A program made the translations under genes and the position numbers. Below, one piece after another: positions 26,275 through 31,237 of a DNA stretch of 64,000 bases. The notes below the pieces were generated by a model, which saw only the letters and a list, made by a program, of their open reading frames with translations, ran no database searches and had not been told where the DNA came from. Source of the DNA: Candidatus Hermodarchaeota archaeon (GTDB lineage Archaea > Asgardarchaeota > Lokiarchaeia > Sigyniarchaeales > SOKP01); NCBI GenBank assembly GCA_048885525.1, contig JBHLLP010000007.1:32001-96000 (forward strand). The letters run 5' to 3'. Position 1 is the first letter of the stretch. Every line of letters starts with the position of its first letter.

Positions 26275-27654
26275 TTATTTTTGAGTTAAATTTCGAAATT
26301 CAGTAATAGTCTTTTGGAGCTTTTCTAATAAATCCTTTACTTGACTGTTGAATTCTTTTAATGGAATCATTTCAGTGTTCAATTTTTCAATCTTCTCATC
26401 AATTTTTGACTGGAATGGTGCTATTGAATTCTTTATCTTCTTTTCTATACCTTGAGATAAATAATTTAGTCGATCATCCATATTTGTTATATAAGATTTG
26501 AGATTTTCCATTTTTTCTTCGAATTCTGAATTTACTTGAAAACTGTTTTCAACTTTTCCCTTCAATAAATATATTAAATTTTCAAGTTTAGTTTTAATTT
26601 CTAGGAAATTATCACCAATGAGATTTTTTAAATTACTTAAAAGTTCATTTTTGGTATCGGAAACACTTTTTGTGAGTTCTTTATTGCGAAGAACACGTGA
26701 GTTGACATAATTAAAAACACTCTTTTTAAACTCATTTGCTGTATCATTCAAAGTCTTATTAAACCAATTATCTACTTTAATTAGCCCCAATGATATCGCT
26801 TCATTCATTTTATTCACTGCTTTATTTATATATTCAGATCCTTTAGAAGTTCCTTGATCTATGTCTTTAATCCATTCTCCCATTTGATTTTTGGTTATCG
26901 CTATAAGCATTTCGGAGAGTTTCTCTGTTCCATCTTGAAAACCTGAATCTAGGGATGTCAAATCTAGAATTTTATCAAGTTCTCCTTCAATAGTCTGGGT
27001 ATCTTCAGAGATTGGGATTTCTTGTAAATCACTTGGAATTGGTTCAACAAATTCATTTATTTCTTTAATAAGAATTGGATTCCTTTTCTGAAAGTCTTCT
27101 GAGAATTTTTGAATCCATTTAAAATACTCTAATGAATTAGGTATTTCAACTTCAAAAGGTACAATATGATATTCGTCAGGTTTCATATAGGCATCTAATC
27201 TAAAAGCTTCAAATCCCAGACCTCCATCTTTGCCCATTAGTGTATGATCAAATACTATACAAAAACCATTTGGAAAATTTTCATTTTGAAAGTATTGAAT
27301 ATTCTTTAAATCACTTTCTGAGAGATATAACCCCCAGGAAGGATGAGAATGGTAATATCCTATTAACTCTGTTGAGTATTTTTTCCCAATCTGAGTAAGT
27401 AATTCATATATATCTTTATCGAATCCAATTTCTACTTTATCTCCATGAATTAGGGGTATCGCATTTTCCATAATGAGTTTATCAGTAGATGAATCATATT
27501 TTCCAATGCAGACTCCCAATACTTCGATACTTTTTTCTAATGCGTTATTACCAAAACGTAAAACATGAGTAAGCATATTTCTGAAAGCTTCTTTTTTAAT
27601 GAAAATATCTTTTTCTTTCTGATTTGATTTTTCCTTTGGTTGATTTTCATTCAA
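26275..27654 (-). CDS. MPN+/JAMM metalloprotease domain with a long C-terminal coiled coil
   Basis: EVLGVCIG ... GYYHSHPSWGLYLSESD (H-x-H-x7-S-x2-D intact); heptad-rich C-terminal ~230 aa. Confidence 0.88.
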   Translation of the reverse strand: MNENQPKEKSNQKEKDIFIKKEAFRNMLTHVLRFGNNALEKSIEVLGVCIGKYDSSTDKLIMENAIPLIHGDKVEIGFDKDIYELLTQIGKKYSTELIGYYHSHPSWGLYLSESDLKNIQYFQNENFPNGFCIVFDHTLMGKDGGLGFEAFRLDAYMKPDEYHIVPFEVEIPNSLEYFKWIQKFSEDFQKRNPILIKEINEFVEPIPSDLQEIPISEDTQTIEGELDKILDLTSLDSGFQDGTEKLSEMLIAITKNQMGEWIKDIDQGTSKGSEYINKAVNKMNEAISLGLIKVDNWFNKTLNDTANEFKKSVFNYVNSRVLRNKELTKSVSDTKNELLSNLKNLIGDNFLEIKTKLENLIYLLKGKVENSFQVNSEFEEKMENLKSYITNMDDRLNYLSQGIEKKIKNSIAPFQSKIDEKIEKLNTEMIPLKEFNSQVKDLLEKLQKTITEFRNLTQK

Positions 27655-27660
27655 TTATTC

Positions 27661-29127
27661 TTATCCCTCTTTTTTATCTAATTTTTCTATCTTATCTAAT
27701 AGCTCTTGATTTTTGCTTTTTAATTCTGCAATGGTTTTTTGAAGATTTTTAATTTCAATTTCTTGTGTGTCTAATTTATGCTTCAGCGGTGTTTTTGAGT
27801 TCTCTAATAAAATTATAGCAGCCTTTAAATCTGATAGAAAATTTTTAGCTTCTTTATTTTGATTGATAAAATTTCCAATAACCTTATTGGTATTTTTTAT
27901 AAAATTACTGGACATTCCTTCCATACCGTTATTTAAAATCTCTATAATTTCGTTTTCCATTAAATTAAAATTCTCTACTAAACTTTTTAAAATAAGTTTT
28001 TGCTCATCCAAACTTTCAGAGAATTTTAGGGCTGTAGAATTTACTTCTGATAATTTAGTTATTTGTTCATTAAATTGAAGCACAAAATTATTAATACTTT
28101 TCAGTAGTTCTTCTTTTAGAATTAATTTGAATTGTTGATTGAGTTCAGACTCGATATCTTTAAAGATGCTTTTAAAAGATTCTTGATCTGAATCAAATTC
28201 CTCGAATTTATCATCAATGTACATATCTAATTCATTTAATTTTTCTTTTAATGAAAATTTATAATCTTTTTGTAGCTTAGAAATCCCTTCACTTAGTTTG
28301 TTTTTTATAGCAATCAAATCTTTTCTCAATAGTAAATTTTTCTCAACAATATTCCGGATCATATTTTCACTCCACGAATTAAGTAATAAGATTAGCGGTG
28401 CGACGGATAACTCCAAGAATTTTGTTAAGGCAGTATTGATTGTAGAGAGAATTCTAGTAGAGTCTAAATCAGGCTTCTTTGCTAAAATCTGACTTTCACT
28501 TGGAAATGTGATATCTCCAAACAAATCGGGCATTTCATTTATTTCTAATATGGGGGGTTCTTTAGAGTGAACACAATTTATTAATTCAATTAATTTTAAA
28601 TAATATTCAATACTATCTGGGGGCTCAATAATTGTTTTTACTTCATGATAACCAGACATTTGTCCTTTTGCTGGATTATCTAATCTAAAGGTACGAAATC
28701 CTAAATCCCCGGGAGTTTCTAGATGTGCGTGGTCGAAAACAATTCCAACCGCACTTGGATTAGGAGTTTGCCACCCTAATTGGTTTCTTATATCCGTAGA
28801 TGAGAAGAATATATCTAATCCGGGGTGAGAATGATACCATCCACAACTAAACCAACCTTTTTCTGAATACTCAGCATCCACCATAGAAAATGTTACATAA
28901 TCCTCTGGGGCAAAAGCAACTTCAATTGCACCCCCATGTGAAATAGGAATAGCATCTTCGATTATAACATCTCTAATTCCTTTCTTATCTGGTTCACCCT
29001 CTAGATGACCAATGATTATTCCCATTACTTCTTTATACTGCTTTCGATCTCTTGCTTTATTTCCAAACCGGAGGACATGTATAAGCATTTTATAATAAGC
29101 TTCTGATTTAATAATAACAAAGCTCAA
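27661..29127 (-). CDS. MPN+/JAMM (Rpn11/CSN5-like) domain with a long C-terminal coiled coil
   Basis: AYYKMLIH, EVMGIIIG, GWYHSHPGLDIFFSSTDIRNQ, VGIVFD, FRTFRL; coiled-coil tail. Confidence 0.9.
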   Translation of the reverse strand: MSFVIIKSEAYYKMLIHVLRFGNKARDRKQYKEVMGIIIGHLEGEPDKKGIRDVIIEDAIPISHGGAIEVAFAPEDYVTFSMVDAEYSEKGWFSCGWYHSHPGLDIFFSSTDIRNQLGWQTPNPSAVGIVFDHAHLETPGDLGFRTFRLDNPAKGQMSGYHEVKTIIEPPDSIEYYLKLIELINCVHSKEPPILEINEMPDLFGDITFPSESQILAKKPDLDSTRILSTINTALTKFLELSVAPLILLLNSWSENMIRNIVEKNLLLRKDLIAIKNKLSEGISKLQKDYKFSLKEKLNELDMYIDDKFEEFDSDQESFKSIFKDIESELNQQFKLILKEELLKSINNFVLQFNEQITKLSEVNSTALKFSESLDEQKLILKSLVENFNLMENEIIEILNNGMEGMSSNFIKNTNKVIGNFINQNKEAKNFLSDLKAAIILLENSKTPLKHKLDTQEIEIKNLQKTIAELKSKNQELLDKIEKLDKKEG

Positions 29128-29352: not shown

Positions 29353-30012
29353 TCATTCATGTGGTAATGGTTTTCCACAATAAGGACAGAATTTAAATCC
29401 TAAATCTTTACCACAATGTGGGCAAAAAGAACCTTCTGAGCTCACTGGGGCTTTTTCTTCAACACCTTCTTTTGGTATTGAAGGTAATTGTCGTGATGTC
29501 TTTAAGGTTGATACTGATGAGTCTGTATTGGTAGTTGGTACTTGTTTAGCTCTTACTCTCTCTTTAAAAGCTTGTCTTCTCTCTTCTTCACGTTCTTCTT
29601 GAGATTTCGTTCCTTCTGTCTTTACCCACCCTTGCGCTTGAGGTCTTTTTAATTCACTTTGAGGAACTTTTGCTAACTCTACTTCTTTTGTTTCTGAAAT
29701 AGGTGCTACTACTTTTCTTTCTTCCTTCTTCTTTAATGCTTGTTTAACAAGAGCCTGAGTTGTTTTCATTACTTGATGGGGATTAATATTAGGGATTGCC
29801 ACGGTTCTAAGAACCCAGCCTACAATAATATTCTGGTTTGGGAAATCGCCATCGACATCTTCATCCTTGAAAATATAGGAATCTATTACATCTCTTCCTT
29901 TTATTAAGCGCACTGCCCATTTTTCGTTTATTTCTCCTAATTGGATTCTATATGAGGTACCAGGTACTCCTAACTCGCTTGTAAGCGGAATAAAGCCTTT
30001 TTCAGTCAACAT
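29353..30012 (-). CDS. Hypothetical protein with a C-terminal double zinc ribbon
   Basis: Globular N-terminus, charged low-complexity linker, FCPHCG...FCPYCG. Confidence 0.8.
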   Translation of the reverse strand: MLTEKGFIPLTSELGVPGTSYRIQLGEINEKWAVRLIKGRDVIDSYIFKDEDVDGDFPNQNIIVGWVLRTVAIPNINPHQVMKTTQALVKQALKKKEERKVVAPISETKEVELAKVPQSELKRPQAQGWVKTEGTKSQEEREEERRQAFKERVRAKQVPTTNTDSSVSTLKTSRQLPSIPKEGVEEKAPVSSEGSFCPHCGKDLGFKFCPYCGKPLPHE

Positions 30013-30237: not shown

Positions 30238-31237
30238 GTGAAAAAAATGGGAAAAGTAATAATCCCAAAAAAAGTATATTTATGTTTAGTAGGAGCGTCA
30301 GTTAGGTTTGCTAACGTACGTATACCTAAAGATGATTGGTTAGAAGTGAGTGGTATATTTACAGGAAGAAATCAAGGAGAAGATGTCATCATCACAGAAT
30401 GTTACCCCATAATGCATCAAGAATTAGATAAAGATGCAGTTATCGATCAATATAAATGGAGTGATGAAGACTATGAAGCTTTATACATTATCGACGAATT
30501 AGCCTTCTCAAGAGATCCCCCAGAGTTTGTAGTTGGATGGTGGCACAGTCATCCAGGCTTTCAGAGCATTGGAGTTCCCACGCTCTAGCTAAAAGGTAAT
30601 GATGAGCCATATTGATATCCAAACTACTCTATCATACCAGCAAAATAATCCTTTAGCAATATCACTGGTTTTCAACCCTACAAGACTCATACGTCAGATC
30701 GAAGTAGCATATAAAAAAGGAGATCCCGATATACAATTAAAAAATGATCCTGGGTTTGAGATATTTAGGTTAGATGATATTAATCGAGGACTTGAAGCAT
30801 CTTATCATCCGGTAGATTATAAAATTGAAGGATATGATAGTATGGAACAATTAGTCAATTTAACTCAGAAGTTTACAATAGATATTACTAATTTCTTTCC
30901 TAAAACTAATGTTCCTAAAATGTATGATAAATTTGTTAATGATAGAATTACTGAATTAAATTCAAGATTTCAGGGAACTGAAGAATATCTGACCACTTTA
31001 ACCATCCGTGGGGAAAAAGAGCGAATTCCAGATGTCTTAAAGAATCAAAGTGAAGAAATCAGTAAATTTGTAGCAGAAACTTCGATTAAGATAGATCGTA
31101 TTAAGGAATTTATGGATTATTTAGAATATAAAGAAAGAGACACCATAGTACCTCAGATTGAGACAATTATACACAAATGGGATGATATGGTTGCGGGAGT
31201 AGATAAGAGAATAAAACAGCTAAAGAAGAAATTTTAA
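30238..31237 (+). CDS. Intron-containing MPN+/JAMM protein, join(30238..30561,30593..31237), 322 aa
   Basis: The two track ORFs are halves of one JAMM protein. Joining them gives EVSGIFTG...GWWHSHPGF|KVMMSHIDIQT...SLVFNP...FEIFRL, with canonical H-x-H-x7-S-x2-D spacing as in the two neighbouring paralogs. Confidence 0.88.
30562..30592 (+). other. 31-nt bulge-helix-bulge (BHB) intron in mRNA
   Basis: Central 4-bp helix GGCU(30556-59)/AGCU(30587-90), 3-nt bulges UU^C (30560-62) and AA^A (30591-93), intron stem AGAGC(30563-67)/GCUCU(30582-86). Cutting after the second nucleotide of each bulge removes exactly 31 nt and restores the frame. Confidence 0.85.

Follow-up and report, generated by a model that had tools for sequence, protein, structure and literature searches.

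A JAMM/MPN+ gene in an Asgard archaeal genome is interrupted within its catalytic motif by a 31-nt insert that, with a probability of roughly 0.78, represents a routinely spliced, near-neutral BHB mini-intron of the kind previously described in the cbf5 mRNA. Because the same genome carries like introns in purA, aIF2-gamma and other genes, the comparative data indicate that this Asgard genus routinely splices mRNAs via the tRNA machinery.

A JAMM/MPN+ gene split by a short insert

The window analyzed here, that is, the whole stretch of 64,000 nt, covers positions 32,001-96,000 of the forward strand of contig JBHLLP010000007.1 (assembly GCA_048885525.1), and all positions are given within this stretch. 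Two ORFs on the plus strand, 30238-30588 and 30599-31237, are the two parts of one JAMM/MPN+ gene. The orthologues from Promethearchaeota are 317-319 aa long, and because of these lengths, the ATG at 30247 is favored as the start, with the upstream GTG at 30238 appearing less likely; from this ATG, the predicted protein is 319 aa long after splicing, compared with 113 aa from the unspliced frame. Exon 1 (30247-30561, plus strand, 105 codons), which is supported by the Pfam JAB model (E = 6.5e-10) and the orthologue lengths, encodes the catalytic Glu33 (WLEVSG, 30343-30345), aligned with the Glu of CSN5 NLEVMG, and the zinc ligands His100-x-His102 (30544-30552), identified by motif and alignment. 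Exon 2 (30593-31237, plus strand, 214 codons and the stop) encodes the remainder of the MPN domain, including Ser110-x-x-Asp113 (the oxyanion Ser and the third zinc ligand, 30605-30616), and a long tail predicted to be helical; the structure prediction, made from the single sequence of an intronless orthologue, is poor (mean pLDDT 44.7) and was used for this tail only. The insert (30562-30592) breaks the HxH-x7-S-x2-D motif. In a search of the orthologue profile against solved structures, the best match is CSN5 (E = 3e-10), with no gaps over the catalytic motif, and it is this alignment that places the Ser and the Asp. The gene is a typical representative of a JAMM/MPN+ family of Promethearchaeota (Loki-type) whose proteins have a helical tail, and from the motif, isopeptidase action on a ubiquitin-like substrate can be inferred.

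The original prediction was that an unspliced mRNA would be read to TAG 30586-88, giving a 116-aa product with the Glu and both His but without the Ser and the Asp, and that the exon-2 frame, closed by TAA 30590-92, would leave no clean route by frameshifting. All of this holds. Both stops, as well as ATG 30599, are found at these positions, and from GTG 30238, the unspliced frame encodes 116 aa with the C-terminal end HSHPGF-QSIGVPTL* (the 113-aa product mentioned above corresponds to the likelier ATG). The exon-2 frame, read through the insert, ends as RALEFPRSS* and the third frame stops just past the insert, so that no single frameshift yields a clean product, and frameshifting to a full-length protein is rejected as a candidate mechanism for the same reason.

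Upstream of the gene and divergent from it, on the minus strand, two tandem JAMM paralogues with intact motifs and long coiled-coil tails (26275-29127) are located upstream of a zinc-ribbon gene (29353-30012), a layout that recurs in relatives. A promoter scan with a sigma-70 model, which is unsuited to archaea, gave results at the chance level.

Fold and covariation of the insert

When all excisions of 10-59 nt were tried, removal of 30562-30592 alone regenerated the orthologue motif HSHPGFKVMMSHID, and this sole motif-restoring excision coincides with the cuts predicted from a BHB fold, after base 2 of each bulge. In this fold, the exon strand of the central helix, GGCU (30556-30559), which comprises a Gly codon and the first base of a Phe codon, pairs with the intron strand AGCU (30587-30590), an assignment based on fold and covariation. 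The helix is flanked by the 5' three-base bulge UUC (30560-30562), with the predicted cut after 30561, and the 3' three-base bulge AAA (30591-30593), with the predicted cut after 30592. The intron itself, which is lacking from the intronless orthologues, contains a 5-bp inner helix (30563-67 with 30582-86), the in-frame TAG and, at its end, the TAA. The fold has a z-score of -2.1 against shuffles, and the outer helix is relaxed, an A-A mismatch being followed by no more than 2 bp; relaxed motifs are reported to be accepted by two-subunit EndAs (PMC2738675, PMC5829648). In genome-wide BHB scans, the insert had the lowest energy of 153 candidates in the second scan and ranked 2 of 668 in the first one, these de novo scans being noisy: the JAMM intron came out at or near the top and the purA intron was recovered, with the relaxed aIF2-gamma and RNase HII introns missed.

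The comparison of copies from different genomes provides additional support for the central helix. All cells of the helix are paired in the 11 aligned copies (11/11), with two-sided changes at two of the four pairs, in a test in which the sequences are related to each other and the structure was derived from one of them. The variants are GGCU/AGCU, GGUU/AACU, GGCU/AGUU and GACU/AGUU, and in the last of these, a Gly-to-Asp change in the exon (GGCU to GACU) is answered by a change in the intron. None of 500 shuffles matches the pairing or the covariation score, and slid registers pair at 20-54% compared with 86%. Position 3 of the helix is a Watson-Crick pair in all 12 introns, a condition that would hold in only 16% of the intronless exons. 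The first pair is G-U in all copies and never G-C, which keeps a TAA or TAG stop of the exon-2 frame at the end of the intron; this constancy is attributable either to ancestry or to selection against frameshifted read-through.

The BHB fold competes with an alternative exon-exon fold. The modeled probability of the central helix is 0.55-0.8 in the studied gene and below 0.15 in 4 of the 12 copies, where the BHB costs 1.3-4 kcal/mol, and because of this competition, splicing may be incomplete. The copies of G004 and G027 are examples with a weak BHB.

Other origins of the insert were considered as well. The Rfam covariance models have no match within the 64-kb window, and 31 nt is too short for a group I or group II intron. 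Assembly error is rejected because DNA contigs from two studies are identical across the insert and inserts are present at the same place in 11 other genomes. Joined forms detected in the DNA run X4 were rejected as evidence of splicing, their source being diverged intronless relatives. Two metatranscriptome runs yielded nothing that matches the stretch and thus bear neither way on splicing.

Splicing machinery and like introns in other genes

The genome encodes two EndA paralogues (C2:50632 and C9:105848) and a single RtcB. Of its 31 tRNA genes, about 18, or over half, are called as intron-containing by ARAGORN. Given these enzymes, and with the insert separating two catalytic residues from the other three, the active JAMM enzyme in this genome almost certainly needs splicing, as judged from the sequence. 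Similar inserts are present in at least three other genes of this genome (G000): a 30-nt insert with an in-frame stop in the P-loop Lys codon of the single-copy aIF2-gamma (GHVDHG^K; C19:33145, minus strand), a 31-nt insert in an Asp codon of the single-copy purA (WG^DEGKGK; C54:8775, minus strand) and a 30-nt insert in the DEAGRG motif of RNase HII (DEAGR^G; C4:36129, plus strand). The archaeal aIF2-gamma is essential, and because it carries a like intron, mRNA splicing by EndA and RtcB must run during growth.

Among the genomes checked, the insert is present in 11 of 27 for purA and in 5 of 30 for aIF2-gamma, with no association with the JAMM intron (Fisher p = 0.71 and p = 0.36, respectively, in 27-30 genomes that include non-independent kin). 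The aIF2-gamma inserts of different carriers occupy one site and come in two versions whose sequences look unrelated, and the purA introns (loci L081-L107) have an internal GCA..TCGCA in common between distant genomes, more than the pairing requires. The genome scans also picked up further BHB candidates of 30-32 nt, the removal of which joins the frames at recognizable motifs; five such candidates in G000 are located in a small GTPase (WD^IGGQ; C39:27861, plus strand), a thymidine/AMP-phosphorylase-like gene (DKHS^TGG; C6:109044, plus strand), a gene with the motif WD^WGSGD (C7:104009, minus strand), a receiver-domain gene (DDEP^D; C52:11566, minus strand) and a gene adjoining rtcB (C56:16270, minus strand).

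Patchy distribution and possible movement of the intron

Within the genus, 12 of 54 genomes have the JAMM intron, compared with none of the 100 other genomes of the order, as found by a pattern search that requires conserved flanks. In other genera, the best matches are mostly open frames of at least 310 aa, and those that were read are intronless; in metagenomes, 4 of the 79 readable loci contain the intron. About 75% of the genus has an intronless orthologue, and the protein encoded there is the same and similarly constrained. The gene tree requires at least nine changes between presence and absence of the intron, and the monophyly of the carriers is rejected (p-AU = 5e-60); an independent tree of purA and aIF2-gamma for 28 genomes requires at least six changes and agrees with the gene tree in that the carriers are scattered, such counts being compatible with both gain and loss. 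On the purA and aIF2-gamma tree, the distance between the intronless genome G031 and three carriers (G027, G005 and G046) amounts to about 0.03 substitutions per site. On the JAMM gene, the distance between the same genomes (locus L051 versus L006, L008 and L009) is about 0.28, which suggests replacement of the whole allele at the G031 locus, coinciding with the absence of the intron.

The introns are 29, 30, 31 or 32 nt long, so that the phase is not conserved, and the unspliced tails, of 1-12 residues, have no common sequence; the sole constant is the early stop, which lies within 12 codons in every copy. Each of the 12 distinct introns has a stop of the exon-2 frame at its end (11 TAA, 1 TAG). 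The intron sequence is more conserved than the fourfold-degenerate sites, which could reflect function rather than neutrality. The introns have a shared core and fall into two sequence subtypes, defined by eye. As an addition to the best reading, it is conceivable, if somewhat short of an even chance, that the intron, in addition to being inherited and lost, spreads laterally to the unoccupied site in orthologous genes, with no homing endonuclease involved. Both subtypes are found in distant clades, with introns 87-90% identical where the fourfold sites of the host genes are saturated at 35-46%; on the marker tree, a single clade of subtype B relative to subtype A is rejected (p-AU = 1.5e-4); and beyond about five flanking codons, no synonymous sites are shared. 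However, the units compared are only 31 nt long, partly under structural constraint and classified by eye; recombination of whole alleles also occurs, as in the case of G031, which is near G027 on the markers and far from it on the JAMM gene; and gain is indistinguishable from loss by change counts. Either the intron moves or its sequence is constrained for some other reason. In the tRNA genes of Thermoproteales, movement of introns between sites has been proposed (PMC4090602).

Routine maturation versus alternatives

Under the reading that we favor, the transcript would fold into the BHB, EndA would cleave it after 30561 and after 30592, and RtcB would ligate the exons, to give the 319-aa enzyme, with a dead 113-aa fragment produced from unspliced mRNA as a by-product. 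The same always-needed machinery that presumably processes the tRNAs, which are rich in introns, and the mRNAs of aIF2-gamma and purA would mature the JAMM mRNA as well, which would make its splicing a routine step and not a gene-specific switch. The intron would be a near-neutral passenger that was lost and/or moved among lineages many times inside one genus, and its persistence at the catalytic motif would be explained by selection against imprecise loss. The original prediction went further, with splicing as an on/off switch, withheld or induced depending on the condition as in HAC1/XBP1, that gates the isopeptidase and could couple deconjugation to EndA/RtcB activity. Its premise, that activity depends on splicing, almost certainly stands for this genome, where the catalytic residues are split, and does not extend to the genus, about three-quarters of which have the same protein encoded by an intronless gene. 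The switch itself appears improbable. It is compatible with the separation of the catalytic residues, the termination of the unspliced frame within 12 codons in all copies and the conservation of the intron beyond that of synonymous sites, and it is the competing fold and the exon-2-frame stop at the end of all 12 introns that keep this reading from falling further. Against it, very close relatives of the carriers are among the genomes that lack the intron, its length and phase vary, the tails have no common sequence, and the essential aIF2-gamma relies on the same machinery. Besides, IRE1 is a signal-activated nuclease whereas EndA is a housekeeping one. The proposed coupling is not supported either: six further JAMM genes in the genome have intact motifs, including one on C47 that adjoins ubiquitin-domain and E2 genes and one on C37 near an E2, so that the intron does not control deconjugation in general. 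A broader version, in which the EndA/RtcB capacity of the genus is either limiting or under regulation and the spliced fraction of the entire set of BHB-bearing mRNAs, JAMM included, shifts with the condition in a HAC1/XBP1-like manner, seems just as doubtful. Knock-down of EndA is known to cause a growth defect (PMC7714728).

Readings that dispense with splicing explain considerably less. The two halves could be translated separately, with a restart at ATG 30599, and then reassembled, or the ribosome could hop over the hairpin; indeed, this in-frame ATG lies 7 nt past the intron, and the unspliced frame of the 29-nt and 32-nt copies terminates at this ATG or adjacent to it. However, the ATG encodes Met108, a conserved internal Met of KVMMSHID, and the ATG pair occurs in the intronless genes as well, the distance from the stop to the ATG varies among the copies, and neither the exon-intron covariation of the central helix nor the like inserts within codons of purA (Asp) and aIF2-gamma (Lys) would be accounted for, which makes this explanation very unlikely. 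The chances that the gene is a pseudogene, a dispensable paralogue disabled by the insert, are slimmer still. The six intact JAMM genes might make such a loss tolerable, but all 12 carriers retain the E, H, H, S and D residues and a full-length frame after removal of the insert, and the ratios of amino acid to synonymous differences from sister genes (0.36-0.79) are within the range of those between intronless pairs (0.38-0.96). Routine splicing of a near-neutral intron thus remains the preferred reading.

Implications and comparison with known systems

In the literature searched, splicing of coding sequences in archaea is documented for cbf5 alone, and no mRNA introns are reported in Asgard, in a search that reached few of the subscription papers. 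What makes the present case of interest is an Asgard genus in which the splicing of mRNAs appears to be a matter of routine and, at the same time, fluid in evolution; this is relevant to the question of where in the eukaryotic lineage mRNA splicing could have started. A regulatory switch, if true, would be of greater importance, but the comparative data speak against it. In practical terms, gene callers split or miss genes interrupted by BHB introns, and the presence and absence of the intron inside one genus provide natural pairs in which the gain, loss and movement of introns can be studied; the preprint on Asgard tRNA introns leaves this question open.

The spliced protein resembles CSN5, Rpn11 and the Caldiarchaeum Rpn11 (PMC6043591) in the complete E...HxH-x7-S-x2-D motif and differs from them in the tail of about 150 aa, which matches no known family, and in the location of the gene outside any ubiquitin operon. 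In the HAC1/XBP1 system, stress-activated IRE1 acts on two stem-loops, and the splicing is deeply conserved. The similarity to this system would consist in the non-spliceosomal excision, joining by a tRNA ligase (RtcB in the case of XBP1) and a protein that is active only after splicing; unlike it, the JAMM intron presents a BHB to the housekeeping EndA, is missing in most relatives and is conserved in neither length nor phase. The intron is not conserved lineage-wide (12/54 genomes of its genus, 0/100 from the remainder of the order), and with lengths of 29-32 nt and unrelated tails of 1-12 residues, there is no conserved frameshifting length or unspliced product, so that the suggested parallel via a frameshifting intron does not hold up.

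The archaeal tRNA introns, including those of Asgard, share with the JAMM intron the motif, the enzymes, the length of about 30 nt, the repeated gains and the occurrence of similar introns at unrelated positions in the tree, and the difference is that the substrate here is an mRNA. The preprint on Asgard introns deals with tRNA genes only and does not contain the word 'mRNA' (bioRxiv 10.64898/2026.10.13.758758), and transposition of tRNA introns in Thermoproteales has been reviewed (PMC4090602).

The closest counterpart is the BHB intron in the cbf5 pre-mRNA of Desulfurococcales and Sulfolobales (Watanabe 2002; Yokobori 2009, PMC2738675), which was named as the only earlier mRNA case in a 2020 study that added a site in the 5' UTR of Haloferax HVO_1309 (PMC7714728). 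The splicing of cbf5 was demonstrated with cDNA whereas that of the JAMM mRNA is deduced from sequence, and the JAMM intron differs also in its Asgard host, in being one of several such introns per genome and in its far patchier distribution (12 of 54 genomes in the genus). Common to both are a short intron within an archaeal coding sequence, a BHB at the junction, cuts between bulge bases 2 and 3, and lineage-specific absence, and by every feature that can be assessed from the sequence, the JAMM intron belongs with the cbf5 mRNA intron.
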